Shown in pieces: positions 7,685-23,438 of a DNA stretch of 64,000 bases. The position numbers and the translations under genes were made by a program. The stretch covers positions 153,123 through 217,122 of the forward strand of contig JAUSDJ010000031.1 of NCBI GenBank assembly GCA_030650795.1, read 5' to 3'. The notes beneath the pieces are model-generated. The model ran no database searches. It saw only the letters and a program-made list of their open reading frames with translations, and was not told the DNA's origin. Positions within the stretch are counted from its first letter, which is position 1; every line of letters begins with the position of its first letter. The stretch comes from Actinomycetota bacterium. GTDB taxonomy: Bacteria > Actinomycetota > Actinomycetes > S36-B12.

Positions 7685-7760
7685 CCCCCATCGCTTTGGA
7701 GTCCTCAGTTCCAGACCACTGACCCTGAAGGGCATCATTTCAGTACCCTCGCCATTCCGG

Positions 7761-8576
7761 ATGCAAGCACTAGCCTTCGGCAGGACAACACGTGGGGAGG
7801 TGGTTGTGCAGACGTTCACGCAACGAGCCAAGGACTCCCTTGCTCGACGCACCCAACCCATCCGCGCTCAACTCACCCGGTCCTGGATCTTTCTTGGGCA
7901 CGAATGCCTGGTGGTCATCCGCAATGGCCGCCGAAGCGAGATCGGATCCTTCGTGATCAGCGATGCAATTCTGGCGCAGATCACCCAGGCGTACGAGCTC
8001 TCAACGGTCATCGAGGCCGAGCCAGCAACGGCCGGGCCAAGTTGGAACAGCGCGGATCTGACAGCGCCGGTGTACGCCAAGTTGAATGCCCATCATGTCT
8101 TTCGTGACGGAGTCGAACTGCTTGCTCAGATCGCCCACTTCGCTGAGGTCTACGACCAGCAGATCCGCGGCATCATCAAAAGCCCGTATCGCATTGTGAA
8201 TATTCGGGCCTGGAGCACCCTGCCTGATCGCGAGGATTTTGGTCCAACCGCCTGGCACACGGATGGCTTCGGCCTAGGTCATATGAAGGCGATGATCTAC
8301 CTCCAGCCACTCGACACGGAGCACGGCGGAATTGCAATCCTCGGTCGTGATCTCATCAACGGATCAGCCGGCACCTGCGTCATCTTCGACAATTCAAGCC
8401 TGCGTCATCGCGGGCTGGCGAGCAGCACTACTGATCGACCAGTGATCGAGGTGACATTGCAGCGTTTGATGAAGCCACCTGCAAGCAAGGCCCCACTGGT
8501 GGGCACCAATAACGACCGGCATATGAAGAGACCCACGTATGCTTACAAGGCCGAGGTCCCGGGGATGCGTACGTGA
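7761..8576 (+). CDS. Fe(II)/2-oxoglutarate oxygenase-like protein (PhyH-like)
   Basis: WHTDGFG (HxD) followed downstream by FDNSSLRHRG (distal His, Arg). Start is uncertain: the ORF opens at 7623 but overlaps the divergent GT4 gene, so the first internal ATG at 7761 is used. Confidence 0.45.
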   Translation: MQALAFGRTTRGEVVVQTFTQRAKDSLARRTQPIRAQLTRSWIFLGHECLVVIRNGRRSEIGSFVISDAILAQITQAYELSTVIEAEPATAGPSWNSADLTAPVYAKLNAHHVFRDGVELLAQIAHFAEVYDQQIRGIIKSPYRIVNIRAWSTLPDREDFGPTAWHTDGFGLGHMKAMIYLQPLDTEHGGIAILGRDLINGSAGTCVIFDNSSLRHRGLASSTTDRPVIEVTLQRLMKPPASKAPLVGTNNDRHMKRPTYAYKAEVPGMRT

Positions 8577-9466
8577 ACGATGGTGTCGCACATCAACTTG
8601 GGCGGGCCAGAAATCTGCTTCGAGAGCCAAGCCTGCTATTTGGGCATCCCAAATGGATCAATGGCCCAGCATCACTGCGATTCCGGGTGAAAAGACTGCT
8701 CACGCCTGCGCACAATCTGAATATCGGCAGCGGGCAGCGGCGCTGGCCGGGGTGGATCTGTCTTGATGAGTTCCATGACCTCGGCACGATCTCGATTGTC
8801 TTTGACGAACGATCTAAGTTCCCGGTGGCAAGCAATTCGATGTCCCTTGCCTACTCCTCCCATTTTCTCGAGCACATTGCCGACGAGGTAGTCGACCAAA
8901 TCTTGCGCGAGACCTTCCGTTGCCTTCAAGTTGGTGATGGATTGCTCCTCAAGATTCCAGATTTCGATATGTTCCTGAATGCCTTTTGCGAAGGCAGGCA
9001 TGAGGTGCTCGACTACATCGGATCTGAATCAGTGGCCTGGACTTGGGCCACTCATCAGGTAGAGGACACTCCAGCCAATCGCCTCTCCATGATGTTTTGC
9101 GGCTACATGAATGAGCAGTACGGCACGCACTTCATCGAGATTCAAGGTCCGCGGAGCTCCGGCAGTTATCACGGCCCGGTACCAATGAATCAAGACGAAC
9201 TCAACGACCTGTTGCTGCATGCAACTTCGGCGCACGCCTTGGCGAAGCAACTTCGGGAGCGCTCGCTCGTGCTAGGAGAAGTCTTCCGATTCAATCACCA
9301 GAATGCTTGGGGTCGGGCAGAATTATTCGCGCTGTTGCGCGAGCACGGTTTTGAAGTTGAGGAACTCGATGATCTGGCCTTAGCCGGATTTGCAACGCGA
9401 ATACCTGATCTTGATCAGTACCGGTCATGGAGCATCTACGTGTTTGCGCGCAAGCCAAAGCCCTGA
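8573..9466 (+). CDS. class I SAM-dependent methyltransferase
   Basis: LNIGSGQRRWPGWICLDE (motif I-like) and SMSLAYSSHFLEHI ... LQVGDGLLLKIPD. The GTG start overlaps the upstream stop (GTGA at 8573-8576). Confidence 0.6.
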   Translation: MNDGVAHQLGRARNLLREPSLLFGHPKWINGPASLRFRVKRLLTPAHNLNIGSGQRRWPGWICLDEFHDLGTISIVFDERSKFPVASNSMSLAYSSHFLEHIADEVVDQILRETFRCLQVGDGLLLKIPDFDMFLNAFCEGRHEVLDYIGSESVAWTWATHQVEDTPANRLSMMFCGYMNEQYGTHFIEIQGPRSSGSYHGPVPMNQDELNDLLLHATSAHALAKQLRERSLVLGEVFRFNHQNAWGRAELFALLREHGFEVEELDDLALAGFATRIPDLDQYRSWSIYVFARKPKP

Positions 9467-9473
9467 ATCAGGC

Positions 9474-10760
9474 CTACAGATTCACCCAACCGCGAGCGTT
9501 CTGACTCTGCGTGGAACCAAGCCGACCCTGGGTGTCGAGCAGCCGGGGGCTGGTCGCAAGCGCCTGCGGGATCAGATAGCAATCATGGGCTTGCAGCAGC
9601 ACTGCGCAATCAGCCAAGGCTGCAGCTGCGGGAAGGTCAACAGCCTTCGGCACCATCACCTCGTCAACGATCCACTCCTCTACGTAGGGATCATGAAACG
9701 TCACAAGCGCACCTTGCCTGCGCAGCTCCTGAAGCACGGCGATCGATGGGCTCTCGCGCAAATCGGCAATATTGGCTTTATAGGTGATGCCCAATAGCAG
9801 AACCGATGCCCCAGCGAGTTCGATCGATTCCTGATTCAACAGTTCCTGCAGCCGATGCACGACGTAGTTGGGCATGCTCGCGTTGATCTCTTGAGCCAAC
9901 TCGACAAATCGAAGACTCTGGCCCAGTTCGGTGCGCACCCGGTGGCCAAGGTAATTGGGATCAATGGGGATGCAGTGCCCACCGACGCCTGGGCCGGGCC
10001 GGAAGGCATGAAAGCCATAGGGCTTGGTCTCGGCGGCGGCAATGACATCCCAGAAGTCGATGCCCAGGAGATGGCTGACCTTGGCGAGCTCGTTGACCAA
10101 GGCAATGTTCACGTGGCGGTAGGTGTTCTCCAGCAGCTTGGCCATCTCAGCCTCTTTCAACCCCTTGGTGCGGACCACCTGCTCGGTCAAAGTCAGATAG
10201 AACTGCTCCGCCCGGTCCGCGCACTCAGTGCTGAAGCCACCGACAACCTTCGGTGTATTGCTGAAATTCCAGCGCCGATTGCCCGGATCAATCCGTTCCG
10301 GACTGAAGGCGAGCGAGAAGTCAACGGTTGCCTTAAACCCATTTCGCTCCAAGATCGGCTTCACGACCTCTTCAGTCGTACCGGGGTAGGTGGTGGATTC
10401 CAGCACCACCAATGGACGCTTGGCCGCATCGATATGACCAGCAATCATGGCCGTGGCGGCCTGAACAGCACGAAGATCTGGGCTGCCGTCGGCAGATAGC
10501 GGGGTTGGAACACAGATGATGAAAACATCAATGTCAGTCAGTTCATTGATGTCATTGGTGGGATGAAATCCTTGTCCGAGCCATTTCCCAACGAGGTCTG
10601 ACGCAATGTCATCGACATGGGATTCTCCAGCCGCTAAGCCGACGACAACCGCCTCATTGACATCGAAGCCCACGACCTGGTGCCCAGCCTCAATGCAGGC
10701 GCCAATCAGCGGCAGCCCGACATAGCCAAGACCGAACACGGCAATTCGCTGACCCACCAC
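9474..10760 (-). CDS. nucleotide-sugar dehydrogenase (UDP-glucose/GDP-mannose dehydrogenase family)
   Basis: IAVFGLGYVGLPL NAD-binding start, central GGHCIPIDP catalytic-Cys motif, length 428 aa. Confidence 0.85.
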   Translation of the reverse strand: MVGQRIAVFGLGYVGLPLIGACIEAGHQVVGFDVNEAVVVGLAAGESHVDDIASDLVGKWLGQGFHPTNDINELTDIDVFIICVPTPLSADGSPDLRAVQAATAMIAGHIDAAKRPLVVLESTTYPGTTEEVVKPILERNGFKATVDFSLAFSPERIDPGNRRWNFSNTPKVVGGFSTECADRAEQFYLTLTEQVVRTKGLKEAEMAKLLENTYRHVNIALVNELAKVSHLLGIDFWDVIAAAETKPYGFHAFRPGPGVGGHCIPIDPNYLGHRVRTELGQSLRFVELAQEINASMPNYVVHRLQELLNQESIELAGASVLLLGITYKANIADLRESPSIAVLQELRRQGALVTFHDPYVEEWIVDEVMVPKAVDLPAAAALADCAVLLQAHDCYLIPQALATSPRLLDTQGRLGSTQSQNARGWVNL

Positions 10761-10840
10761 TCGTCCCCCCGTTCCGGCCTTCTCAGGAAGAGCAGACTAG
10801 TGGGCCTCCTCAGCATGAGGTGACAAATCTCCACTTACTC

Positions 10841-12277
10841 TCACTTGATGGCTTCCGCAAAGGTCATGATCGTGCCCAACAGTTTGACATTGGCTTCGTC
10901 AAGCAGTCGCGCGGCGGACTCCAATTGCTTGCATGTGGTTCGCCCACGTCCCACAACGATCACCGCGCCATCGGCAATAGCGCCGATTACAGCAGCATCC
11001 GTACTCGACAGCAGCGGCGGAGCATTGATGATCACCAGATCCACTTGTGTTTTCAGATCAGCGAGCAGGAGCTCCATCTGCTCGGAGGCCAGAAGGGCAG
11101 TGGCATCGGCGAGATGAGGCCCGCGTGGAAGCACGCGCAGCGCGCCACGATGCCAAGTCAACTCGGCTTGACTCAAGGGCATAACTCCCGCGAGCACGTC
11201 GGGCAGCCCCACTTCAGAGTCAACGCCGAGATACGCCCCCAGTTTGGAATTATGCAAACACGCATCAATCAACATCACTGATCGTCCCGACTCAACAAAA
11301 CTCATTGCAAGATTCACTGCTGTGGCAGTTTTACCCGAGCCAGGGTTTGCACTAGTGATCACCACTGCGGCCGGGAAAACCTTTGACTGCTGAAGAGCTG
11401 CCTGACCAAGCGCCCGCTTGAGATGCTGTTCGATCTCGGGGCGAGGGGTCATCAAGATCTGATTGAAGGACCTCGAGGTTGACGCAATATGACCAAGATT
11501 CTCCGTGCGAAGACACTCCTGCAGATCAGCCTGGGTCTGGATCGGCGCTTGACCGCGCAACCGTGCCGGCAATCGGCTCTTGAGGCTGAATCCGGGCGAA
11601 TTGAACGCAGGCTCATTGAGCGCATCGTCCTGAGCGCCTGTCTCCATCGCATTGGCTACGAGTTGGCCTGCTTGAGCTATCGCGATGAAAGCCTCTGCCA
11701 GCGCTGTTGATGCATGGGCCACCTGATCAAGAGTTCCTCGATGATCAATATCCCCGTGACGATCCTCAATGTCGTCGTGCTGCGGATCCCAGGATGCGAG
11801 CATCCCTCGAGCTGCATCCATCTCAACCACAAGCCAACGAAGTCGATCGAGGGTGGAGTCCGGGAAAGGTTGCGCCCCTGGCGGTGTCGAACCGCTTGCA
11901 ACAAATTGAGCGACCCACGTCGCCAATCGAGCGGCCTGGCGAATCGTGAAGGTGTCTTGCCGGCTTGCCGGATCCATCCGAGCAATCCAAGCTCTCTGAG
12001 TTCGATCAGCCGTCAGCAGCAAATCTGCTCGCTTCAGCAATGCCGGGGTGAGTTGCCGCGAATCGCCAATCGCTCCAGCAAGGCCAACGTAACTTGCTGC
12101 TTGCGGGCACATCGCGTCACCGACCGCGGCAAACGTACCAGCCCAACTCACGTGGACCGCAGGACGAAGCGCAACAAGGGCACTGCGCATCACGCTTGCA
12201 GCCAGCGGCGAACGGCAGACGTTCGCCGAACAAGCAACTAGCACCTCGAAGGATTCCTGCACACGCAATCTTCCCAC
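10841..12277 (-). CDS. fusion of LMW phosphotyrosine phosphatase domain and BY-kinase-like P-loop ATPase domain
   Basis: N-terminus VLVACSANVCRSP is the CX5R(S) PTP loop. C-terminal domain has Walker A SANPGSGKTATAVNLA, Walker A'-like VMLIDACLH and Walker B-like DLVIINAPP. Confidence 0.7.
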   Translation of the reverse strand: MGRLRVQESFEVLVACSANVCRSPLAASVMRSALVALRPAVHVSWAGTFAAVGDAMCPQAASYVGLAGAIGDSRQLTPALLKRADLLLTADRTQRAWIARMDPASRQDTFTIRQAARLATWVAQFVASGSTPPGAQPFPDSTLDRLRWLVVEMDAARGMLASWDPQHDDIEDRHGDIDHRGTLDQVAHASTALAEAFIAIAQAGQLVANAMETGAQDDALNEPAFNSPGFSLKSRLPARLRGQAPIQTQADLQECLRTENLGHIASTSRSFNQILMTPRPEIEQHLKRALGQAALQQSKVFPAAVVITSANPGSGKTATAVNLAMSFVESGRSVMLIDACLHNSKLGAYLGVDSEVGLPDVLAGVMPLSQAELTWHRGALRVLPRGPHLADATALLASEQMELLLADLKTQVDLVIINAPPLLSSTDAAVIGAIADGAVIVVGRGRTTCKQLESAARLLDEANVKLLGTIMTFAEAIK

Positions 12278-12339
12278 TTGGCCGCTATGAGGATGCCAAC
12301 CGCCCAGATTCTCCGCAGGTTACGAGGTCGGATATCAAC

Positions 12340-12804
12340 GTGCTCATCCCCGTCCTCAACCCATTGTTCATTGAGAACGCCCGAAGCATCATGGATCCTG
12401 CTTGGCCGATTTCGTTTGAAATTCACGACTTTGTCCAAGCCGCACTTCCTCATCAATACTCCGCGGTCTACGCCTTGGATGTCCTGGAACACATTGAACC
12501 GCGCGATGAGTTCGATTTTCTCTCGAATTTGGTGGCCTCATTGGTGGACGATGGAATAGCGGTCATCGGCATGCCGAGCATTGAAAGCCAACCCCACGCG
12601 AATCCCGCCAGTCGTGACGGCCACGTCAATTGCAAGTCGGGGCCTGATTTGAAGGAATGCCTCCGGACTCACTTCCAGCAAGTCTTCGTTTTTTCTACGA
12701 ACGATGAGGTGATCCACACGGGGTATCCCCCGATGGCCCACTATTTGCTGGCTCTTTGCGTCGGTCCTATTCGCACCTGTTGGCCAGTGCTGCCAGGACT
12801 CTAG
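12340..12804 (+). CDS. truncated class I methyltransferase-like protein (possible gene remnant)
   Basis: Contains only post-motif-I regions (YSAVYALDVLEHIEP, DDGIAVIGMP). No GxGxG motif in any frame upstream. The ORF track start (12094) overlaps the convergent-strand gene, so the internal GTG 12340 is used. Start is very uncertain. Confidence 0.35.
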   Translation: MLIPVLNPLFIENARSIMDPAWPISFEIHDFVQAALPHQYSAVYALDVLEHIEPRDEFDFLSNLVASLVDDGIAVIGMPSIESQPHANPASRDGHVNCKSGPDLKECLRTHFQQVFVFSTNDEVIHTGYPPMAHYLLALCVGPIRTCWPVLPGL

Positions 12805-13188
12805 AGGTTCATTGAGCATTCCTGAATGGAGCCTCTCCTCGATGGAATCCCCCGCATCTCACCTCGCACAGGCCCGAGCAAGCCCGCGTTGCTTGCGATG
12901 GCTGGGCATGTCGTGAGCCGCTTGGGTCTGCCCGCCACTGGGAGGAGCTGTGCGCGAATACATCGATCTACGCCTCCGCGGCTCGTTCGGTACTGCCACT
13001 TACGCGCAAATCTGAATCGTTGATTCGCCGGCACTAGTCCACGTCTGCCGCAAGCGAATTGGATGGTTTTTTCGTCACGTTCATGTCGCAACTACGTACC
13101 AATTCCTTCAAGGATCGGCCTTCCCCGTTAGCCTGCAAATAGAGCTCCCGATGGGCGCTTGGGCAAACATGCGTCGAGGAGAACTCAA

Positions 13189-13485
13189 ATGAAGAGAACA
13201 CAGAAATTAGCCGCAGCGATCACCGTTATGACTGCCATTCCGTTGGTAGGCCTAGCCCTAGCCATGCCAGCGAATGCCGCTCCAGCAGATCTGCTGGAGG
13301 CGGTAGGGGTTCCAGCAACTGGCCTCTGCACTGATGTCGTGGCACCAGCAGCGAACTTGGCCGGCGTGGCCAATGGCAGTTGGAGCAAGTCATGGGGAGT
13401 GTGGATCTCACCGACCCTTGGTGGTCCGGTGTGCGTTCGCACCCTTTGGTACAACAACTCCACACAGTTGTGGGATCGCCGCTAA
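13189..13485 (+). CDS. small secreted protein (signal peptide, two Cys)
   Basis: GAGGAG Shine-Dalgarno 7 nt before ATG 13189. MKRTQKLAAAITVMTAIPLVGLALAMPANA/AP looks like a Sec signal with an AxA site. Followed by a terminator hairpin. Confidence 0.5.
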   Translation: MKRTQKLAAAITVMTAIPLVGLALAMPANAAPADLLEAVGVPATGLCTDVVAPAANLAGVANGSWSKSWGVWISPTLGGPVCVRTLWYNNSTQLWDRR

Positions 13486-13520
13486 ACGTGCGGCTAGTAC
13501 CACCTGCTTGAAAAGAATGC

Positions 13521-13562
13521 GGCCCCCCGAACTCAACTTGAGTTTCGGGGGGCTTTCTTTCT
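13521..13562 (+). terminator. rho-independent terminator
   Basis: CCCCCCGAACTCAA / TTGAGTTTCGGGGGG stem with one bulge, followed by CTTTCTTTCT. Lies 36 nt after the stop of the small secreted protein gene. Confidence 0.6.
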
Positions 13563-13805
13563 CATGGAGTCTTTCCTCCACAGTGACCGCTCCCCTGGCC
13601 TCCCAGCAGGCCTGCGCATGGCGCGCAAGCCGATGCTTCCTCGATGCCTGCGTGACTCCAACTAATGAGTCGGGAGTCCTGAGTCGCGGGGCGACTTAGG
13701 CGTGGGCGCTCAGGTCGAACTCGGTTTCATAGGCGATACTTCGCACATGTCTTGTCTGATTTGCTTCGGCTTGATCTGCAGTAGTAGTGCTCGTACGGAT
13801 CTATC

Positions 13806-15836
13806 GTGATTGCAGACACCAGCAATCCGGTCCTGATTGCGCCCAACACTTACTGGGTCGGCGTCAATGACCATCCGCTGGGGCTTCAGTGCAACCCATA
13901 TCTGATCCTTGACGGTGATGATGCTGTGTTGATCGATCCGGGGTCAGTCCTCGACTTCGAGTATGTGCGCGCCCAGGTGGAGAAGCTGATCCCAATCAGC
14001 AGCATCAGCACGATCGCACTGAGCCATCAGGACCCTGACCTCTGTTCAAGTGTGACGCTGTTCGAGCGCGCTGGGTTCGAGGGGCACATTGCCACGCACT
14101 GGCGGGCATCGGTTCTCCAGCGCTATTACGGCATCACCTCGCCGTTCTACCTGGTCAATGAGCATCAGTACGCGCTGACGCTGCGGTCGGGCAAGGTCAT
14201 CGAATTCATCCCAACCCCTTACTTGCACTTCCCCGGTGCAGTAGCCACGTTCGATCCGCAGACCAGGGTCCTGTTCTCGGGGGATCTCTTCGGCGCCTTC
14301 TCGACCCACTGGTCCTTTCGCGCCGACAAGTCAACCTATATCGAGGGCATGAAAGCGTTCCACGAGCATTACATGCCCAGCAACGACAACATCCGGCCGG
14401 TGATGGAAATGCTGCTGGCGATGGACATCGACGTCATCGCGCCTCAGCATGGATCCATCATTGATGCCGACATCGCGGACTACATCGTTGCCCTCCGGGA
14501 GCTTGAGTGCGGCACGATGCTCAATCCGATACGGCACGAGCTTGCCGCCTCAGGCGGATTCACCAGCATCGTCGAGCAGGTGATCCGCAGGTTGCAAGGG
14601 CTCTACCAGGCGGACGAGGTGCTCGGCGTCGTGCAGCACATGGAGATGACGATTGATCCTGGAACCTTGACGATTGGGGAATTTTCCTACACCGGCGTGG
14701 AACTGTGGAATGCCCTGTTCCAGACCATGGCTGATGCGGGGAAGCAGTCCTGGCTGACGGCGGTTGAGCCATTGGTCCGCAAGCTCGCAGCCGAGTACGA
14801 CATCGAGATGCCCCAGTACTACCTGAACGAGCGATCGACAACCCAGGTTCGCATCGACCAGCTTGCCCAAGAGATCGACAGTCTGCGCGCGCTCAATGTC
14901 CGCCTGGACACCACGCTGCGCGAATCGGAGGACAAGCTCACCAGATGCCCGCTGACAGGCCTTCGGAATGAGCGCTTCTTCACCGAATTCCTGCCGGCGA
15001 GCGTTGCGCAGGCCGAGGCCGCGGGCCAGGACCTCACCTTGGTCTATGTCGGAGCAGACCGCATCGCTGACGTGACCTATGCACGAGGCAAGCAGGCAGG
15101 CGATGAGGTCATCAAGAGCGTGGGTTACCTGCTTGAGCGGGGATTGGAGCGAAATGAGCAGCTGTTCCGCCTCGATGGCCCCAACTTCGTGCAGATGCTC
15201 ATCGAGGTGTCCGGCGAGCGAGCCGTGCTGACCCGAGTCGAGCGCATCCGTCGCGAGGTTGCCATGTCCACGATCTCACTGGATCCCCTGACGGTCTCCA
15301 TCGGGACGGTATCCCTAAGCGAGGCGCGCACCCATCAGCCAGACCCAGCCGAGCATGCATCGCTCATGGCCCGAACTGGACTGCTGCGTCTTCGTGTCGC
15401 GAGCAATCGCGGCGGCGACACCATCTGCTCGACATCGGACATCGAGCATCCGTCCACCTCGGCCGGAACGATTGTGATCGCCGACCCGGATCCGGTGAAT
15501 ATCGACGTGCTCACGACTGCGCTGCAGGCCATGAACTTCGAGACAATCGGTTGCTCAGATGGGCTTCAAGCGCTTCAGGCGATCGAGCATGGGTCCATCA
15601 GTGTCGTCATCGCCGAGGCGGTCTTGCCGAAACTCGATGGTTTCGCGTTGCGCGAGGCGCTGTCGTCGGCGTCTGCCTTCAGGGAGCTGCCGTTCCTCAT
15701 GATGGGATACGAGAAGGACGCCGAGACAGTCGCTCGCGCCCAGAGCCTGGGGATCAACCACTTCTTCAAGAAGCCATACCTGCTGTCCGAACTGGTCGGC
15801 ACTGTGCGTCTTGAGCAGCGACCGCGTCTGAGATGA
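13806..15836 (+). CDS. di-iron (FDP/ODP-like MBL-fold) sensor with degenerate GGDEF domain and pseudo-receiver domain
   Basis: N-terminus: SHQDPD, LHFPGA, LFSGDLFG, APQHGSII (flavodiiron-like lactamase-fold motifs). Coiled-coil linker. GGDEF fold with RLDGPNF in place of RxGGDEF. C-terminal receiver fold with VVIAEAVLPKLDG (Glu at the Asp position), LMMGYE and FFKKPY. Confidence 0.8.
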   Translation: MIADTSNPVLIAPNTYWVGVNDHPLGLQCNPYLILDGDDAVLIDPGSVLDFEYVRAQVEKLIPISSISTIALSHQDPDLCSSVTLFERAGFEGHIATHWRASVLQRYYGITSPFYLVNEHQYALTLRSGKVIEFIPTPYLHFPGAVATFDPQTRVLFSGDLFGAFSTHWSFRADKSTYIEGMKAFHEHYMPSNDNIRPVMEMLLAMDIDVIAPQHGSIIDADIADYIVALRELECGTMLNPIRHELAASGGFTSIVEQVIRRLQGLYQADEVLGVVQHMEMTIDPGTLTIGEFSYTGVELWNALFQTMADAGKQSWLTAVEPLVRKLAAEYDIEMPQYYLNERSTTQVRIDQLAQEIDSLRALNVRLDTTLRESEDKLTRCPLTGLRNERFFTEFLPASVAQAEAAGQDLTLVYVGADRIADVTYARGKQAGDEVIKSVGYLLERGLERNEQLFRLDGPNFVQMLIEVSGERAVLTRVERIRREVAMSTISLDPLTVSIGTVSLSEARTHQPDPAEHASLMARTGLLRLRVASNRGGDTICSTSDIEHPSTSAGTIVIADPDPVNIDVLTTALQAMNFETIGCSDGLQALQAIEHGSISVVIAEAVLPKLDGFALREALSSASAFRELPFLMMGYEKDAETVARAQSLGINHFFKKPYLLSELVGTVRLEQRPRLR

Positions 15837-18715
15837 CAGCCCTAAGTGAGACTGCCGTACTGCTGCTAGCTGTCGCGTCGATGCTGGCGTGCGCGGCGGC
15901 GGTGCTGGCCACGGTGCTGGCCAAGGCATCGCGGACGCGCCGCATGCGCGTGCAGCGGCAGTTGGAGCACGAGATCTCGCGCCTTGAACCCGGGGATGCG
16001 TTCGCCGCTCCAAAGAGCCAAACTCGTGAGGTCCTTGCTGCCTACGTCGATGTGCGTCAGTCCGCGACCCTGTCCCCGCTGACGGTCGAGGGAGTGCGAG
16101 CATGGCTTGTTGACCAGGGCGTGGAGCGGGTACTGATCCGCAAACTCGGTTCGCGGCGTGCCATTCGGCGTGTTGAGGCGGCGACCGCGCTCGGCTACCT
16201 GCCCGGTGACTCGGTGCGGCAGGCTCTTGTCGATGCCCTGGGGCGTGAACAGCGCGACACTGTGCGGCTGCGGATCGCCGTTGCCCTGCATCAGGTGGAC
16301 CCGGATGCGAGCGTGGCGATCCTCTTGGACAGCATCCTGAGCGCGAGCGAGTGGATTGCGGTTCGTGCCAAGGGCTTACTGTTGGAGGCAGGGCGATCGT
16401 TCTACCTCATTGCGCGCACCATGCTCGCGACCACAGAGACGCGTCTCACCGGCATCCTCATCGACTTCGCGGCCGTGTATCCCGCCACGGACCTGCGCGA
16501 TTTCCTCGTTGCCCGCGTATGGTCGAAGGACGCGGACGTCTCCATTCACGCGGCCCAGGCATTGCGGGCTATGTATCCATCGATAATCGCGGACGAGCGT
16601 TACATGGATCACCCGCTCTGGCAGGTGCGGGCCAATGCCTATGGGGCCTTGGCCAGCACACCGAGCCGTCGAACTCTGGAGCGCCTCCTCGCGCGCACAT
16701 CCGATATGGCTCAGGCGAGCTCCTGGGCGCGAGCGACTCCAGATTACGACCTGGAGTTCGCCGAGTTGCAGGTTGCGGCAGCCAATCTCCTGCGCACTCA
16801 GCCGAGCCTTCTGCCGACCGTTGCCGAGGCGTTCGTTTCCACTGACGTCCCCGAGTACCGGAGTGCCCTGGCGTCGCTGCTCTCCTCACGAATCCAGTAC
16901 TACTTCATGCAACTGATTGGCCCCGACGCCGATGCCGCGCGCGCGATCGTGCGCGCGATCGTGGCCTCAGGCAGGAGCAGTGAGCTGATCGGCTTCTTGA
17001 ATCGCAATCGCAATGTGGAGCTCGAGAACGAGGTCCTTGCATGCATCCAGCCCCTGCTTGAAGCAAGTCCGCAACTGGTGCAGGAGCTGGAGTGGTATCT
17101 CGCGCCGAGGATCCTGGACAAGATCGGCCTCGAAGAGCGCAGTCGCGCCACACCGCCAAGAGTGGAGCAACGCGTCAAGTCGAAGATCGTGCGGATGTAC
17201 GCCCTGCTGGTCGTTGCGCTGCTGGCCTTCCCACTTGCGTTCTGGCTGCTCAACCGCTCGGAGTTCGGTGTGCTCTCTCCACTGGACCTGCTGCGCGAGT
17301 ACGTGACCGCGTGGAACTCGGCTCTGCTGGTGTACATCGCTGCGCTGCAGGTGGCGACTCTCGCCATCCTGGTCTTCGCCGTCATCGGCGTGCGTGCGCA
17401 AGCCAGATCCTGGCGGGCCAAGCCGTACTCGCTGCTGTTTCGTCCCAAGGTGCTGCCGTCAGTCTCGATCGTGGCCCCAGCCTTCAATGAGGAGTCGACG
17501 ATCGTTGAGAGCGCGAGTTCCCTGCTGGGCATCCAGTATCCCGATTTTGAGCTAATCATCGTGAATGACGGTTCCCGCGATGCCACCATGGAGCGACTCA
17601 TCGAGCACTTCGAGCTCGAGAAGGTGGATCGCACGATCCCAACGACCCTGGCGACCAAGGCCGTGCGCGGCATCTACGCCAGTCCCGCGGTCCCGCAGCT
17701 GCTCGTGGTTGACAAAGACAATGGAGGCAAGGCCGACTCCCTGAATGCTGGGATCAACATGAGTACCAAGGAGTACTTTTGCGGCATCGATGCAGACTCG
17801 CTGCTCGAGTCCGACTCGATGCTCAAGGTCGCTGCTGGGTGCCTGGATTCGGTCGACGAGATGGTGGCCGCGGGCGGGAACGTGTTCCCGATCAACGGCT
17901 GTACGGTCGAGCGCGGCGCCCTTGTCAAGGTCGGCCTGGCACGCTCGCCATTGGCGCGGTTCCAGACCATCGAGTACATCCGGGCCTTCATGGCAGGTCG
18001 CGTCGGCTGGGCCTATGTGAAGTCGCTCTTGATCATCTCGGGGGCCTTTGGGCTGTTCCGCAAGGAGCGCGTGATCCAGGCGGGCGGGTACTTGACCGAA
18101 TCGGGTCCTTACCGCCAGGACACCGTCGGTGAGGACATGGAATTGGTCGTCCGCCTGCGACGCGAGATGATCGAGTCGGGTATCCCCCACCAGATCAACT
18201 ACGCCTACAACGCAAACTGCTGGACCGAGGTGCCCGAGACCATCTCTACGCTGCATCGTCAGCGCGACCGCTGGCAGCGCGGACTGGTCGACATACAGTT
18301 CCTGCACCGCAGGCTGCTGCTGAACCCGAGATACAAGTCCACCGGTCTTATCGGGATGCCGTACTACTTCGTGTTCGAGCTGTTTGGCCCGTTGATTGAG
18401 GCGCAGGGGTACATCATGCTCATCCTCGCGGCAATCACTGGGCTGCTTGAGCCGGCAATGGCGATTGCGCTGTTCACGACGATCGTGCTCTGGGGAATCC
18501 TCGTCTCGACCCTGTCGCTGTACATCGCGGAACTCCAAACCAGCTATTTCACTCGACGCGAGATCGCCACCATGCTCTGGTACGCAGTCCTGGAGAATTT
18601 TGGCTTCCGGCAGCTCGCGAGCCTGTGGCGCGTCTCGGGGTTCTTCAGTTCACTGCGCCGACCACGAGGGTGGGGTGAGATGCGCCGCAAGGGGTTTGCA
18701 GTTGCCGCCCAGTGA
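15833..18715 (+). CDS. HEAT-repeat domain fused to GT2 processive polysaccharide synthase (PgaC/IcaA/cellulose-synthase-like)
   Basis: ATGA start/stop overlap with the upstream sensor gene. N-terminal TM helix, then about 430 aa of HEAT/PBS-lyase-like repeats (e.g. RRVEAATALGYLPGDSVRQALVDALG). TM pair, then GT2 core (IVNDGSRD, DKDNGGKADSLN, GIDADS, GAFGLFRKE, QRDRWQRG) and C-terminal TM helices. Confidence 0.8.
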   Translation: MTALSETAVLLLAVASMLACAAAVLATVLAKASRTRRMRVQRQLEHEISRLEPGDAFAAPKSQTREVLAAYVDVRQSATLSPLTVEGVRAWLVDQGVERVLIRKLGSRRAIRRVEAATALGYLPGDSVRQALVDALGREQRDTVRLRIAVALHQVDPDASVAILLDSILSASEWIAVRAKGLLLEAGRSFYLIARTMLATTETRLTGILIDFAAVYPATDLRDFLVARVWSKDADVSIHAAQALRAMYPSIIADERYMDHPLWQVRANAYGALASTPSRRTLERLLARTSDMAQASSWARATPDYDLEFAELQVAAANLLRTQPSLLPTVAEAFVSTDVPEYRSALASLLSSRIQYYFMQLIGPDADAARAIVRAIVASGRSSELIGFLNRNRNVELENEVLACIQPLLEASPQLVQELEWYLAPRILDKIGLEERSRATPPRVEQRVKSKIVRMYALLVVALLAFPLAFWLLNRSEFGVLSPLDLLREYVTAWNSALLVYIAALQVATLAILVFAVIGVRAQARSWRAKPYSLLFRPKVLPSVSIVAPAFNEESTIVESASSLLGIQYPDFELIIVNDGSRDATMERLIEHFELEKVDRTIPTTLATKAVRGIYASPAVPQLLVVDKDNGGKADSLNAGINMSTKEYFCGIDADSLLESDSMLKVAAGCLDSVDEMVAAGGNVFPINGCTVERGALVKVGLARSPLARFQTIEYIRAFMAGRVGWAYVKSLLIISGAFGLFRKERVIQAGGYLTESGPYRQDTVGEDMELVVRLRREMIESGIPHQINYAYNANCWTEVPETISTLHRQRDRWQRGLVDIQFLHRRLLLNPRYKSTGLIGMPYYFVFELFGPLIEAQGYIMLILAAITGLLEPAMAIALFTTIVLWGILVSTLSLYIAELQTSYFTRREIATMLWYAVLENFGFRQLASLWRVSGFFSSLRRPRGWGEMRRKGFAVAAQ

Positions 18716-18793
18716 GCGACAGTCGAGCTTTGGTGAGTGCTTCGTGTGCGATGTATGGACAGATCGGAAGTGGCGAGGGTCAGCACCCTGTAA

Positions 18794-20047
18794 TCAACGG
18801 GACATTATTTGCACTAGACGCTCCGCAGTGGTTTCCAGGCCCCACCGCTCAACTGCAGTCTTCCTTGCGGCCTGGGCGACCCGATCATGGATCGGCGAAG
18901 GTAGTGCGACGATTTCTCGCATCTTCGTGGCGAGATCTCGAACGTCGCCAACACGAAAGCGCGTGAGATGGGCTTGCGCTGTTGGATAGTTTTCGGATAG
19001 TCCCATTGCGACCTCAGCCAGTCCGGCATGAAACGCGACCAATGGAGGCGAACCGCACGCTGCCGCTTCCGCGGCAACCAAGCCGAAGGCCTCGGGAAGC
19101 ACCGACGGCACGACGCTGACTGTCGCCAAGGGCCACAGATGCGCAAGATGACGGTGACCCAGGGGTCCAGTGAACAGGACAGATGATCCGCACTCTGCCT
19201 CAAGTTCCTCGCGAAGCGGCCCGAAGCCCGCAATGACAGCCCGCGCTGGAACATCGAGAAGGGCTCGCATCAGCAGGTCAACACCTTTTTCTTTGCTTAG
19301 CTTTCCCACGTACACAACCGTTGGTTGCTGGTCGGAAAGGAACGCAGTGAGACGGTCGGCGTTACCAGGATCGGGTAAGCGGTAGTTGGATCGATTGCTG
19401 TTTGGCGGGTCCAACTGACATTGAGCAATCAACGATGTTAACGCCTCATCCGGGCTCTGCGGATGAAGTCGCTGGGTGTCGACTCCGGGCGCCACCACAT
19501 GCACGTTGTGTTCGTAGTCGCCAGGACCAACGACCTCGCGCAGCCGGTGAACGATATGTAATGATCCCGCAATAACCGCGTGGGCTTGGCGTAGTGACGC
19601 AACGGCCCACTGGATGAGTTCCGGGTTGCCGCTCATGGCGAATTCAAGTTCAGATCCGTGGACCATCACAGCGAAAGGCAACCCAGACGCCGCACCCACG
19701 GGAGCCCCCATTAGCAGATGGTTGGTGATCAGGAAATCGGCCGGACCTTGAAGCCTGATCACCTCCGCAGCTTGTTGGACGAAGTGTTCGCGCTCCTCAG
19801 AGGCGAAATCCTGGAGGAGCCGCGGCGTCATGTCGGAGTACTGATCGAGGACAAACACCGGAAGGTCGCCATCCATCGGTGGGCGCACCGCGCGTGCTCC
19901 GCCGAGGTCGAACCGAGCCGGATCCGCGTCCTGACTCAAAACGGTCACGTCATGACCCTGGCTGCTCAGCTCACGGGCAATCGATTGGGTGAAAATGTTC
20001 GAACCCGTGCCATCCAGCAAATAGCCATGCCAGATCAAAATCCTCAC
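18794..20047 (-). CDS. glycosyltransferase family 4
   Basis: MRILIWHGYLLDGTGSNIFTQSIARELSSQGHDVTVL start and C-terminal VVPSVLPEAFGLVAAEAAACGSPPLV (EX7E-like motif). Confidence 0.8.
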   Translation of the reverse strand: MRILIWHGYLLDGTGSNIFTQSIARELSSQGHDVTVLSQDADPARFDLGGARAVRPPMDGDLPVFVLDQYSDMTPRLLQDFASEEREHFVQQAAEVIRLQGPADFLITNHLLMGAPVGAASGLPFAVMVHGSELEFAMSGNPELIQWAVASLRQAHAVIAGSLHIVHRLREVVGPGDYEHNVHVVAPGVDTQRLHPQSPDEALTSLIAQCQLDPPNSNRSNYRLPDPGNADRLTAFLSDQQPTVVYVGKLSKEKGVDLLMRALLDVPARAVIAGFGPLREELEAECGSSVLFTGPLGHRHLAHLWPLATVSVVPSVLPEAFGLVAAEAAACGSPPLVAFHAGLAEVAMGLSENYPTAQAHLTRFRVGDVRDLATKMREIVALPSPIHDRVAQAARKTAVERWGLETTAERLVQIMSR

Positions 20048-20393
20048 TGAACGAGCCCCCTAACATCACGCCCGAGCGGGTTGGGGCTACCTGCACCGTA
20101 GCCCCCATTTCAAAGTTTTTGACTTTGCTCCGGCTTCCCGGACACCGATGAGCAGGACACGATGGGGTTTCGGAAGGAGAACGTACCCCTGTGAATACTC
20201 CGTTGGAGTTGCGCCGTAGGTCGCGGGTGTAGGCGAAGTACTCGCATTGGTCTCAAGCGCGAGGAACGACTGATGCATACTCGCGCAATCGTGAAAGCCT
20301 ACGCGGATCTGGTCAACCAGAATTTCGGTGGCGTGATCAACAAAGACAACCCGTCCGGAAACCGGGAGATAGTCAGGCTCCTAATTTGAGTGG

Positions 20394-21191
20394 CTAGTTC
20401 TGGCAGACCTTTTCGATGGCTTTTATCCCCTCAATATCGCCGCTTCCGATCTGCCGATCGACCGGCAAATTGGTATCTAGGTACCTGAACATGACATTGC
20501 TGGGATCGTCGCTGTCTGCAAGACCCAGTGCGTGGCCAAGTTCATGCATGAAGAGCAATCGACGGTCGAAACTGTTTGTTCTGACTAGATAGTCCGTGCT
20601 GACTGCGATATAGCCATTGACGATCTCCTTGCTGCCTGCAAACACTCGACTTGGCGATCCATACCCGACGACGTTCTTTGTGATGATCGACGATTTCGAG
20701 TCGGGAACAAAGTACACGGCAATATTGCGACTAATGTCCTTGACGGGCTTGACCGTGGTGGTCGCATCGTTGTAGGAGACCGCTAGTTCTCCACCATCGG
20801 CAAAGGTCAGCCCCGATGCCTTCGCCCAAGCATCGAAGGCCGCCCCAAGGTCGGGGCGCACGACGGCTGCCTGTTTAGGTGTCAGGTTCGACGTGTCCGT
20901 CGTCCACGAGATGGGAGCCGAGCAGGTGGCCCAACCACTGCCAGCGAATGCCGCATCGGTGTAGATGGAGCCCACACGGGTTGTCCCCCACGCAAGCACG
21001 CTCGTGGCTGCGACGGCTGCAATCGTGCACAACACGGTTATCAATGGGCGCCGCCGATAGGTGAGACGGTAGTGGCGTTCGTATTTGAACCATGTCCGCC
21101 GGCGAGTAATACCGTCATCGAAATAGTCACGCGCACGGCGCAATGGGTGACTCGGATTCCTCCGCTCGTGGCCCAGCGGTGACTCAGACAT
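20394..21191 (-). CDS. membrane-anchored zinc metalloprotease (matrixin/snapalysin-like, HEXXHXXGXXD)
   Basis: HELGHALGLADSDDPSNVMF zinc-binding motif with Asp as third ligand and a Met-turn candidate. N-terminal TM helix LITVLCTIAAVAATSVLAWG. Confidence 0.65.
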   Translation of the reverse strand: MSESPLGHERRNPSHPLRRARDYFDDGITRRRTWFKYERHYRLTYRRRPLITVLCTIAAVAATSVLAWGTTRVGSIYTDAAFAGSGWATCSAPISWTTDTSNLTPKQAAVVRPDLGAAFDAWAKASGLTFADGGELAVSYNDATTTVKPVKDISRNIAVYFVPDSKSSIITKNVVGYGSPSRVFAGSKEIVNGYIAVSTDYLVRTNSFDRRLLFMHELGHALGLADSDDPSNVMFRYLDTNLPVDRQIGSGDIEGIKAIEKVCQN

Positions 21192-21728
21192 CTCGCCTCC
21201 TCAAGGTCAGGCTACGCCACTGCATGAGTTCAAATCTGGATCTTTGCCGCAAAGTGGCTCGGACGGTGTTGAGCACCTGCATTTAGGAGATTAGCAATGC
21301 GAGCGGGACGAGGAGTTCTCCGTCTTGCGCGAACTGGGCGTGGCAAGCAGCCCTCATATCGACACGACGAAGTACTTCGGTATCGCCTTACCGAGATTGG
21401 GCTTCCTTGACGAGGGAGAATTGCCGCGTCAATTGTCCAGATCGTGGACGATGCTCAAGATTGCCGTCACATGGCGATGGCTGTAGAAATTCGAAGTCGT
21501 ACGGGGGCAATTGGTCGGCGAATCAGCTGACGCTATTCATGGATTTTGGCAGGCAGTTGAGCGAATACGGCGACCGAAGACTGCGTCCGCATGCTGCGTA
21601 CCACCAGGTGCGTGGACACTCGTGACGCCTAGGTCCATTTCGGACATTGCTCTGTGCCGCAGTCCATTGAGTCATCATTCTGACTAGCATGAGTGGCCTA
21701 CTGATTAGCTTAATTTGGAGGCCACCAT

Positions 21729-23438
21729 GTGCGTCATGTTCCACGCGCTTCTGATGAGTCGCACGTCACGGAGCTGTTGACGATCATGCAACGCGGGAGC
21801 GGAGGCGGGCTCTATGACCCGTCGGAGAAGCCCGTCGAACTTGACGATGGAGTCTGGTGGGTCGGAGTGCGGCTTTTCGACAACACTTTCCAATGTCATG
21901 CGTACCTCATTGAAAACGGCACGGATTCGGTGCTGATCGACCCGGGTTCCAATGTCACGATTGATGGTGTCCTGGCGAAGGTTCGACAAGTCATGCCACT
22001 GGAGAACATCAAATATCTCGTGTGTCATCACGCCGACCCGGACGTGTGCTCATCACTGCACGATCTGACTGGCATTCTCAAGCGTGACGACGTCCAGGTC
22101 ATCACTGAGTGGCGAGCACGGGAATTACTTGACCATTACGGTCACCGGTTTCCGTACTACCTGCTTGAGGACCACGCTTGGCGCCTTCCGCTCGCAGGCG
22201 ATCGCGAACTCCAGTTCCAACTCACCCCGTACCTACATTTTCCCGGAGCTTTCGTAAGTTTCGACACGCACACCCGTACCCTCTTCTCGGCTGATCTGTT
22301 CGGCGGCTTCGTTCCGGATTCCAATATTCTCATCGGGACCGATCTTGAATACATTCTCGAGGCGGCTCGCCCATTCCATCAGCACTACATGCCGAGCCGT
22401 CAACTGCTTGAATTGGGGCTCACTCGCATCCAGCAGCACTGGCCAAACATTGCTCGCATAGCGCCGCAGCATGGGCACGTCATCGAAGGCGAACTCGTGC
22501 AGCCGGCCTTCGAGGGGCTCAAGCAGTTGGAGTGCGGAATCTTTACTCTCTCCGACGCGGATCTTGATCTTCAACACCTCATGCGCCTGAGCGAAAGCAG
22601 GGCGCACATCCTGCAAGCACTGCTCGAAGCACATTCCCCCAGGGATCTCGTTGCACACATCAACCGAATCCTTCATGACATTCAAATTGCTGCTCAAGTC
22701 GTCCTTCGGCTCTTCCTGCCAGACGAACGCCAGTGGGTGGAATGGGGGGTCGAGGGCGCCAAGACAGTGCACAGTGGGACGCATCGAGGTTGGACCACGA
22801 TCCCGCTAGACGGCATGCCTAAGGCGAATCTCCTAGTAAGCGGGCGCGACGGTGACCCGCTCGACAAAGACTTCACATCGATGCTGGATGCGATGGCGGC
22901 AATCATTCGCCCAACGGTCGAGCAGTATCTGGCCGAGCGGCGACTCCACCAAGAGGCTGAGACCGACCAGTTGACGGGGTTGGGAAATCGTCGAGCGCTG
23001 GAACTGGTCATCCCGGCGGATCGCTACTGTGTCGTGGCAATGGACGTGGATCACTTCAAGCGAGTCAACGACGAATTCGGGCATCCGACTGGGGATCGAG
23101 TGCTGCAAAGGGTTTCCGCGGCTGTTCGCAATACGGCCCGATCCGGGGATGGGGTATTTCGCACTGGAGGTGAGGAGTTCCTTGTCTATTTGCCTAGGGC
23201 GACAAAGGAAGCGGCTTTTCGCGCGGCCGAGCGCATTCGCGCTGCTGTGTCATCCCTCGATCTCACAGGTGAGGCTCCTGGAGGCCACGTCACTCTCAGC
23301 GCTGGCATCGCCGAACTTGAGCGCAGTGATGCCGGTCGCCTCGACGACGTCATGTTGCATGCAGACGAGGCGCTCTATCGAGCCAAGCGTGGAGGACGCA
23401 ACCAAATATCGGTCTACCCGACCACGACGCCGAACTGA
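21729..23438 (+). CDS. di-iron (FDP/ODP-like) sensor diguanylate cyclase (intact GGEEF and I-site)
   Basis: GGAGG 7 nt before GTG 21729. CHHADPD, LHFPGA, LFSADLFG and APQHGHVI motifs are paralogous to ORF 13806. C-terminal GGDEF domain has VAMDVDHFKRVNDEFGH and RSGDGVFRTGGEEF. Confidence 0.85.
   Translation: MRHVPRASDESHVTELLTIMQRGSGGGLYDPSEKPVELDDGVWWVGVRLFDNTFQCHAYLIENGTDSVLIDPGSNVTIDGVLAKVRQVMPLENIKYLVCHHADPDVCSSLHDLTGILKRDDVQVITEWRARELLDHYGHRFPYYLLEDHAWRLPLAGDRELQFQLTPYLHFPGAFVSFDTHTRTLFSADLFGGFVPDSNILIGTDLEYILEAARPFHQHYMPSRQLLELGLTRIQQHWPNIARIAPQHGHVIEGELVQPAFEGLKQLECGIFTLSDADLDLQHLMRLSESRAHILQALLEAHSPRDLVAHINRILHDIQIAAQVVLRLFLPDERQWVEWGVEGAKTVHSGTHRGWTTIPLDGMPKANLLVSGRDGDPLDKDFTSMLDAMAAIIRPTVEQYLAERRLHQEAETDQLTGLGNRRALELVIPADRYCVVAMDVDHFKRVNDEFGHPTGDRVLQRVSAAVRNTARSGDGVFRTGGEEFLVYLPRATKEAAFRAAERIRAAVSSLDLTGEAPGGHVTLSAGIAELERSDAGRLDDVMLHADEALYRAKRGGRNQISVYPTTTPN

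Follow-up and report, generated by a model that had tools for sequence, protein, structure and literature searches.

How might the synthesis of an extracellular polysaccharide be controlled by a regulator which has kept the folds of two classical signalling domains and lost the chemistry of both? The question is raised by two adjacent genes in a 64,000-nucleotide stretch of DNA from an Actinomycetota bacterium (assembly GCA_030650795.1, contig JAUSDJ010000031.1, positions 153,123 to 217,122 of the forward strand), the whole of which is termed the window below. The upstream gene encodes a putative sensor with an N-terminal ODP domain, a degenerate GGDEF domain and a pseudo-receiver, and the downstream gene encodes a processive family 2 glycosyltransferase (GT2) carrying a HEAT-like solenoid. 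A first-pass annotation made from the letters had already placed this pair, and both open reading frames (ORFs; 676 and 960 amino acids (aa)) were confirmed; both match, residue for residue, proteins predicted from an Actinomycetota metagenome-assembled genome contig (P0001 in the case of the sensor), and independent gene calls on a public contig concur. Direct allostery from sensor to synthase is the best-supported mechanism for the pair, with a probability that we would put at roughly 0.55. The features of the locus are collected in Table 1.

Table 1. The sensor-synthase pair and associated features, in window coordinates.
Feature	Position	Strand	Basis
Sensor/regulator gene, 676 aa, GTG start: ODP, linker, coiled coil, degenerate GGDEF, pseudo-receiver	13806..15836	+	ORF list, Pfam, AlphaFold2 (AF2)
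ODP di-iron metallo-beta-lactamase-fold domain, aa 1-236	13806..14513	+	PF19583, Foldseek, invariant alignment columns
Helical linker domain with small beta-hairpin, aa 240-340	14523..14825	+	AF2, alignments A1, A3, A4
Long single helix, aa 341-380 (DSSP helix 342-379, 38 residues)	14826..14945	+	AF2/DSSP, DgcB match
Degenerate GGDEF domain, aa 381-540; A-site RLDGPNF at 15168-15188; ERNE at I-site position	14946..15425	+	PleD alignment, paralogue comparison, family statistics
Pseudo-receiver, aa 555-671; Glu604 at 15615-15617, Gly634, Lys656	15468..15818	+	Pfam, PleD alignment, family statistics
ATGA stop/start overlap, geometry expected for translational coupling	15833..15836	+	Read in sequence; same in homologous loci
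Synthase gene, 960 aa: transmembrane (TM) helix, HEAT-like solenoid, two TM helices, processive GT2, C-terminal TM bundle	15833..18715	+	Pfam, AF2, Foldseek
HEAT-like alpha-solenoid, aa 61-430, predicted cytoplasmic	16013..17122	+	AF2 all-helical, HEAT_2 at cut-off, domain identities
GT2 catalytic domain, aa 540-800	17450..18232	+	Invariant columns of alignment A2, Pfam and NCBIfam
QRxRW motif, Q810-W814, in helix after GT2 domain	18260-18274	+	Invariant in alignment A2
Weak terminator-like hairpin just after synthase stop; may mark operon end	18787..18801	+	Consensus match alone; fewer sites than in shuffled sequence
Matrixin (M10) peptidase gene	20394..21191	-	Also adjoins cassette in L093 (L093:9407-10189), despite different gene order
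Paralogous ODP-GGDEF gene with intact RSGD I-site, GGEEF and DVDHFKRVND	21729..23438	+	Pfam GGDEF 124.7 bits, sequence

The AF2 model of the sensor, with a predicted local distance difference test score (pLDDT) of 87.2, is divided into five parts (residues 1-236, 240-340, 342-379, 381-540 and 555-671). The first of these was matched by the Pfam family ODP (PF19583; E-value 4.7e-60, 203.2 bits against a cut-off of 27.2, residues 27-216) and was superposed by Foldseek on the solved ODPs 6qrq, 6qwo and 6r9n with E-values of about 1e-17 and TMt of 0.76-0.83. In the HMMER alignment the motifs HQDPD, LHFPG, SGDLFG, FHEH and PQHG coincide with their counterparts in the solved structures 6qrq and 6qnm, the solved proteins aligned being those of Thermotoga maritima and Treponema denticola. 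The ligand positions listed from this alignment (H74, D76, D78, H141, D160, H186 and H215) are invariant among 65 aligned members of the family (alignment A3). The linker domain that follows received no family in the Pfam scan, and it contains W301 and F305, invariant in alignment A3, and W316, invariant in alignments A1 and A4. The subsequent long helix is read as a coiled coil leading into the degenerate GGDEF domain, since Foldseek matched helix and GGDEF fold together to the coiled-coil-GGDEF unit of DgcB (6ttr, TMt 0.85). Both the lactamase-fold N-domain and the coiled coil behind it had been proposed by the first-pass annotation, and both are borne out by these matches. Neither a flavodoxin nor a rubredoxin partner domain was detected in the sensor by the Pfam scan.

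The C-terminal half of the protein was matched by GGDEF (E-value 1.7e-14, a weak 54 bits, residues 382-511) and Response_reg (E-value 4.9e-13, 49.7 bits, residues 556-667), and it is here that the functional residues have disappeared. In the residue-by-residue HMMER alignment with PleD, DGPNF of the sensor sits under GGEEF and ERNE under the I-site RAID; the metal-binding D327 of the PleD motif DID is replaced by Gly416 (GAD), and the guanine-binding N335 by Thr424, both positions being variable in the family. The same losses emerge from comparison with the paralogue encoded downstream (Table 1), in which FRTGGEEF and DVDHFKRVND stand against FRLDGPNF and GADRIADVTY of the sensor. In the receiver fold, D53 of PleD has been exchanged for Glu604 (VVIAEAV) and the conserved Thr for Gly634, whereas the conserved Lys is kept as K656; D560 and D562 are present, with Pro or Thr occupying the second canonical acidic position. 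The profile alignment disclosed neither an intact GG[DE]EF nor a phospho-acceptor Asp that an earlier misalignment might have concealed.

These losses extend well beyond the window. Among 120 sensor homologues, which are about 43% identical over their full length and share the architecture and the motif losses, the A-site consensus reads F-[RK]-L-x-G-x-x-F-A, with Ala/Pro and Ser/Thr/Ala as the commonest residues at the two catalytic positions. The first position of RxxD is mostly Glu, Asp or Gln, Arg not being among the six commonest residues, and the fourth is mostly Glu, His or Thr, with Asp in 11 of the 120, so that neither a GG[DE]EF nor an RxxD consensus exists in this set. At the phospho-acceptor position of the pseudo-receiver, Glu is found in 117 homologues, Asp in two and Ala in one, while the Lys is retained in all 120. 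Because the losses are conserved at such full-length identity, the degenerate domains are under selection rather than decaying. Judged from these alignments, the inactivation of both classical outputs, c-di-GMP (cyclic di-GMP) synthesis and phosphotransfer, can be regarded as established for the whole family. The first-pass annotation had read the GGDEF domain as dead, the acceptor as Glu with its Lys retained, and both chemistries as inactivated, all of which the PleD alignment and the family statistics uphold; its Gly at the Thr/Ser position is correct for this protein and fails as a family trait, since 115 of the 120 homologues keep Ser and Gly is limited to the actinobacterial branch. Three conventional roles considered for the sensor were rejected: a phosphorylatable response regulator on account of the Glu acceptor, an I-site receptor for want of RxxD, and a GTP sensor in view of the lost base-binding Asn and metal-binding Asp.

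The synthase has preserved what the sensor has lost. Pfam assigned three GT2 families to it, together with HEAT_2 at 27.7 bits, exactly the cut-off, over residues 111-176. In its AF2 model (pLDDT 88.3, predicted template-modelling score 0.86), an N-terminal TM helix is followed by the solenoid of about 370 residues, a pair of TM helices, a GT-A fold and further TM helices at the C-terminus. With that pair between them, the solenoid and the GT2 domain should lie on the same side of the membrane, which by topology and by homology with other processive GT2s would be the cytoplasmic one. Residues D579, D653-A-D655, G766-E-D768 and Q810-R-D-R-W814 are invariant among the 54 sequences of alignment A2, and the top folds retrieved by Foldseek were hyaluronan synthases (8smp, 7sp7), BcsA (9fmz, 4p00) and chitin synthases; on these motifs and the predicted fold, the enzyme looks active and processive. 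The best NCBIfam match, PgaC_IcaA (TIGR03937), reached 107.8 bits, and since this is far under the equivalog cut-off of 422.3 bits, the synthase is not a PgaC/IcaA equivalog.

The HEAT identity of the solenoid is suggested mainly by the predicted alpha-solenoid and by the Pfam matches of homologues, PF13646 being listed for most of 107 synthase homologues and reaching 46.9 bits in P0235, rather than by the marginal match of the window protein itself. What the first-pass annotation called HEAT-like repeats is predicted to be an all-helical solenoid, the protein's own Pfam match lying at the cut-off. Its processive GT2 core is supported by the fold and by the invariant DxD, GED and QRxRW motifs, and the overlap of sensor stop and synthase start was read directly. 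The absence of a PilZ domain or an RxxD receptor, likewise claimed, agrees with the statistics of the 120 homologues and with the Pfam scan, in which no PilZ match appeared at E <= 0.1 in either protein. In many Firmicutes synthases, the consensus of alignment A2 shows a Cys-rich insert (CxNC...C...C) in the solenoid, which may be a metal-binding knuckle and is not evident in the window synthase.

That the two genes are paired is shown by their distribution. Full-length relatives of the sensor, about 675 aa long and built from the same four Pfam domains, number more than 1,250, and of 185,579 species-representative genomes 499 contain a relative. The hosts belong to the Clostridia, Negativicutes, Treponemataceae and other Spirochaetota, Fibrobacterota, Anaerolineae and Actinomycetota; with the Marinisomatota and Thermotogota members found in separate look-ups, at least seven phyla are represented. 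Judged by their taxonomic labels, the host groups are mostly known as anaerobes. Pairing was surveyed by searching the fetched loci with the window synthase (tblastn), the 80 loci kept representing Bacillota, Spirochaetota, Fibrobacterota, Chloroflexota and Actinomycetota. The HEAT-GT2 gene lies directly downstream of the sensor gene in 73 of 73 analysable loci: in every locus that is long enough, a GT2 homologue of 49-59% identity is found on the same strand about 1.5 kb past the end of the sensor, and where no GT2 match was obtained (13 loci) the contig runs out, three of these loci still showing the start of the HEAT region. At the junction, a 4-nt overlap is present in 41 of the 73 loci and nearly all others are joined within about 30 nt. 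The other flanking genes vary between loci, and no further gene was found to be conserved with the pair across phyla.

The same picture was obtained from the synthase side. Homologues were collected in a search with the Desulfosporosinus orthologue and in a full HMMER scan, in the latter of which the full-length HEAT-GT2 proteins fall into about 90 clusters at 50% identity. Reverse look-ups from P0229, the most divergent match of the Desulfosporosinus search (38% identical to the query), and from the Petrotoga synthase P0148 both found the sensor gene immediately upstream. The conserved co-occurrence of sensor and HEAT-GT2 synthase, looked for as a check on the first-pass annotation, is therefore established, and the idea that the pairing is a local accident was rejected, as it is found in every analysable locus. 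Many stand-alone synthases of about 470 aa share 40-45% identity with the GT2 core on its own, and it is therefore the solenoid that sets the sensor-coupled clade apart. In the sensor, mean pairwise identity is 58% for ODP, the best conserved domain, 46% for the pseudo-receiver, 35% for the linker and 34% for the degenerate GGDEF domain; in the synthase it is 67% for GT2 and 33% for the HEAT-like region, the least conserved part.

Given these features, the pair may be viewed as an autonomous, horizontally mobile sensor-synthase cassette that would operate as follows. The N-terminal ODP would bind a di-iron centre and report O2, or the Fe(II)/redox state, and in a protein that is probably a dimer the change would be relayed through linker domain and coiled coil to the degenerate GGDEF domain and the pseudo-receiver. 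These two, neither synthesising c-di-GMP nor accepting phosphate, would serve as a protein-interaction surface, its docking site on the co-translated synthase being the cytoplasmic HEAT-like solenoid, the GT2 domain or both. Such docking would gate the processive synthesis and export of an extracellular polysaccharide, switching the synthase on or off, and its likely role in anaerobes is matrix production or aggregation set off by oxygen or iron.

Physical contact between the partners is supported indirectly by two lines of evidence. In the synthase relatives P0236, P0274 and P0259, a receiver-like domain is fused to the C-terminus; that of P0236, itself degenerate, scores up to 75.6 bits against sensor pseudo-receivers and at most 40.7 bits against any solved receiver, and because of this difference it is assigned to the sensor type. 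In a mirror-tree comparison of 70 sensor-synthase pairs with 100 columns per domain, the distances of the degenerate GGDEF domain correlate with those of the HEAT-like region at r 0.89 (5-95% range 0.875-0.903) against 0.74-0.85 for ODP, linker and pseudo-receiver, and the partial correlation given the GT2 distance is 0.74 against 0.45-0.50 for the other sensor domains, a signal that is confounded by shared phylogeny and similar evolutionary rates. Taken together, fusion and mirror-tree are suggestive of contact.

Besides this confounding, a number of observations weigh against direct allostery. In L091 (L091:115-9908), a divergent cassette and the one locus where a fused synthase and a sensor gene are both visible, the sensor homologue has its own pseudo-receiver with the Glu acceptor kept, and the receiver-like domain on the synthase is thus an addition and not a relocation. 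Binding of metal and O2 by the sensor's ODP is itself inferred from the conservation of motifs. Moreover, the paralogue encoded about 3 kb downstream of the cassette, whose true start is probably the ATG at 21786, is a probable active O2- or iron-regulated diguanylate cyclase as judged from its intact motifs, and its ODP domain is 38% identical to that of the sensor. An orthologue of this paralogue (80% identical) stands divergently adjacent to the sensor gene in L093, the closest related locus (sensor 69% identical), in which an M10 peptidase gene and then a PAS-GGDEF-EAL gene follow the synthase; an intact ODP-GGDEF cyclase is accordingly linked to the cassette in the window genome and in a related one. 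Within 6 kb of the cassette an intact GG[DE]EF gene is present in 12 of 94 fetched loci, hinting at a connection with c-di-GMP; several of these genes are directly upstream, as in L010 and L079, and in L075 and L084 one coding for about 290-295 aa stands a few kb upstream. PgaCD and BgsA, furthermore, are GT2 synthases that bind c-di-GMP through no recognisable domain. The first-pass annotation, which had left the paralogue unconnected to the pair, held that the signal would have to travel by protein contact, and with an intact cyclase so near, here and in the related genome, that wording was too strong.

These neighbours are what chiefly speaks for a c-di-GMP-linked adaptor, an explanation we consider rather unlikely, in which the sensor would form a heterodimer with an active cyclase (in the window, the paralogue with its ODP, intact GGDEF and I-site) by way of its ODP, coiled coil or GGDEF fold and tether that cyclase to the synthase, or in which the complex would bind c-di-GMP non-canonically in the HEAT-like region, the GT2 domain or the pseudo-receiver. 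Precedent is offered by BcsE and PelD, synthase regulators with a degenerate GGDEF domain that are c-di-GMP receptors (PMC7439463). The sensor family, on the other hand, conserves RxxD at neither position and has lost the A-site together with the guanine-base and metal residues; about 85% of the loci have no GGDEF gene nearby, no PilZ domain accompanies the pair, and Rfam detected no c-di-GMP or other riboswitch in the window or in nine loci, upstream of the cassette included. The cassette is otherwise self-contained across phyla. In some lineages a c-di-GMP link is consequently plausible; by far the most cassettes are without such a neighbour.

Strict pairing and translational coupling would fit equally well with an obligatory, non-signalling assembly or stability partner, whose ODP would be a relic or an enzyme, for instance an O2 or NO scavenger shielding the complex. 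This constitutive role finds some encouragement in the lineage of L091, where the ODP ligands have been lost (H141 to Pro, D160 to Lys) and the pair persists. We nevertheless hold it to be improbable, given that the ligand motifs are invariant in the 65 aligned members, implying that metal chemistry matters, that ODP is the sensor's best conserved domain, that no flavodoxin or rubredoxin domain is at hand for catalytic turnover, and that the characterised ODPs are sensors and not enzymes (PMC7666581). Least probable of all, and by our estimate only a slight chance, is that the sensor acts elsewhere and is merely co-expressed, its pseudo-receiver docking to, for example, a kinase, a transcription factor or a motility component. 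Pseudo-receivers often have varied partners, the same Asp-to-Glu change is found in the plant pseudo-response regulators (PRRs; PMC2725789), and in L091 a hybrid histidine kinase gene, a REC-Hpt gene and a single REC gene adjoin the cassette upstream. Such a role is opposed by the complete pairing and stop/start coupling, by the lack of any other gene conserved with the pair across phyla, and by the fusion of a domain like the pseudo-receiver to the synthase itself. Direct allostery accordingly remains the reading that we prefer.

With respect to known systems, the cassette regulator is classed with the BcsE/PelD type of degenerate GGDEF/REC synthase regulator, as a variant. BcsE, the regulator of E. 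coli-type cellulose secretion, resembles the sensor in being cytoplasmic, in combining a degenerate receiver with a degenerate GGDEF domain (the GIL module), and, as proposed here for the sensor, in post-translationally regulating the processive GT2 synthase with which it is encoded (PMC7439463). In contrast to the sensor family, BcsE binds c-di-GMP via a conserved RxxD I-site; its domain order is receiver then GGDEF, the reverse of that in the sensor, which adds a di-iron ODP and a coiled coil of its own, and the synthase partnered by BcsE carries a PilZ domain where a HEAT-like solenoid is found here. No sequence relationship between BcsE and the sensor was detected beyond the shared folds. 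PelD, a degenerate GGDEF protein in a polysaccharide synthase operon, activates its synthase by protein contact (PMC7439463). Unlike the sensor, proteins of the PelD type are membrane-anchored and c-di-GMP-dependent, possess an intact RxxD and lack both ODP and a receiver. YdaK of the Bacillus subtilis Yda system and PssE of the Listeria Pss system are degenerate-GGDEF c-di-GMP receptors of this same type.

On the input side, the ODPs of T. denticola and T. maritima share Pfam family, fold and metal-site motifs with the N-domain of the sensor. ODP is a stand-alone O2 sensor that signals to a chemoreceptor by protein-protein contact (PMC7666581). In the known cases ODP is the only domain of a protein of about 250 aa encoded in a chemotaxis operon, whereas here it forms the N-terminal input module of a multidomain protein of 676 aa whose partner is a glycosyltransferase. 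In Bhr-DGC and DosC-type proteins, O2 is sensed by a non-haem di-iron or a haem domain joined to an active GGDEF domain (PMC8846402); the window paralogue probably belongs to this functional class, while the GGDEF domain of the sensor is dead and its output cannot be c-di-GMP synthesis. The plant PRR/TOC1 proteins, in which the receiver Asp is replaced by Glu, work without a phosphorelay (PMC2725789); unrelated in lineage and context, they illustrate only that an Asp-to-Glu receiver can be a stable and functional interaction module. As for the synthase, PgaC/IcaA, BcsA and the hyaluronan and chitin synthases share its GT2 fold, DxD, ED and QxxRW motifs and TM channel, and it is distinguished from them by its unique N-terminal TM helix and HEAT-like solenoid and by the lack of PilZ and of a PgaD/IcaD partner. 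None of the systems compared joins a built-in di-iron sensor, a GGDEF domain devoid of an I-site, a Glu-receiver and a HEAT-armed GT2. In agreement with the earlier remark that no exopolysaccharide synthase is known to be so controlled, full-text literature searches, whose coverage leaves out many subscription-journal papers, returned no published account of such a system.

The surroundings of the cassette provide further observations. In 45 loci, the synthase gene is followed by a third gene whose product of 700-1055 aa carries a TM helix at its N-terminus and a large extracytoplasmic portion (for example L003:15048-18215, L068:7585-10452 and L075:10862-13747) and was matched by sequence to nothing in Pfam or the PDB; the window, Desulfosporosinus acidiphilus and the Marinisomatota locus lack this gene. 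P0292 (1,623 aa), considered as a Rosetta-stone fusion of sensor and synthase, was rejected as such, being the synthase fused to this third, extracytoplasmic product. A gene for a GH16 glycoside hydrolase (L003:9287-9991) is situated 10 nt upstream of the sensor gene in Acetobacterium wieringae, with homologues in six other loci, a possible hint at a beta-1,3 or mixed-linkage glucan as the polymer instead of poly-N-acetylglucosamine (PNAG). In Petrotoga, the cassette is immediately preceded by genes for rubrerythrin and for desulfoferrodoxin, a superoxide reductase (L088:4667-5678), and desulfoferrodoxin homologues were located near it at L019:5393-5758 and L029:1935-2294; the presence of such genes beside the cassette in three loci fits an oxygen-stress role.

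In the window itself, the matrixin gene may represent a clade-specific accessory, serving for instance in matrix processing. The region 3366-12277 resembles a polysaccharide locus, with genes for a nucleotidyl transferase, a PfkB-kinase/cytidylyltransferase fusion, a GT4 glycosyltransferase and a UDP-glucose dehydrogenase, and at 10841-12277 on the minus strand a low-molecular-weight phosphotyrosine phosphatase is fused to a ParA/BY-kinase-like ATPase. Third-position GC is 0.77 and 0.79 in the cassette genes, compared with 0.63-0.70 in the neighbouring ORFs, which could reflect horizontal acquisition or high expression. A promoter scan of 12200-21800 gave no match to the sigma-70 consensus, which the host may not use. 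Farther away, a 970-aa ORF at 31994-34906 (plus strand) drew no Pfam match, and a DUF4012 protein is encoded nearby at 29206-30978 (minus strand).

In the synthase-dependent exopolysaccharide systems known to us (cellulose, PNAG, Pel, alginate, Pss and Yda), the post-translational switch is a c-di-GMP receptor. The cassette described here retains a degenerate GGDEF domain and a degenerate receiver beside a GT2, has no nucleotide site and gains a sensor for O2 or iron of the di-iron type. Were direct contact true, signalling enzymes would have been recycled into pure allosteric couplers, and there would be a simple, testable answer to the question of how strict anaerobes, among them acetogens, sulfate reducers, clostridia, treponemes and fibrobacters, tie oxygen exposure to matrix production. 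The family is large and apparently unstudied, and its cultured hosts include Acetobacterium, D. acidiphilus, Clostridium grantii, Fusibacter, Flexilinea flocculi and Petrotoga; the window locus, with its intact ODP-cyclase paralogue, affords a natural comparison of a live and a dead output of the same sensor. In its fullest form the proposal is a tentative one, which we rate at somewhat less than an even chance: a second-messenger-free and kinase-free route would lead from a di-iron O2/Fe(II) sensor, via a fossilised GGDEF domain and receiver, to the HEAT-like arm of the synthase, and anaerobes of at least seven phyla would thereby start matrix synthesis within seconds of meeting oxygen by direct allostery. 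The cassette would then be the first synthase-dependent exopolysaccharide system with a dedicated regulator that senses an environmental gas or metal itself and not c-di-GMP.

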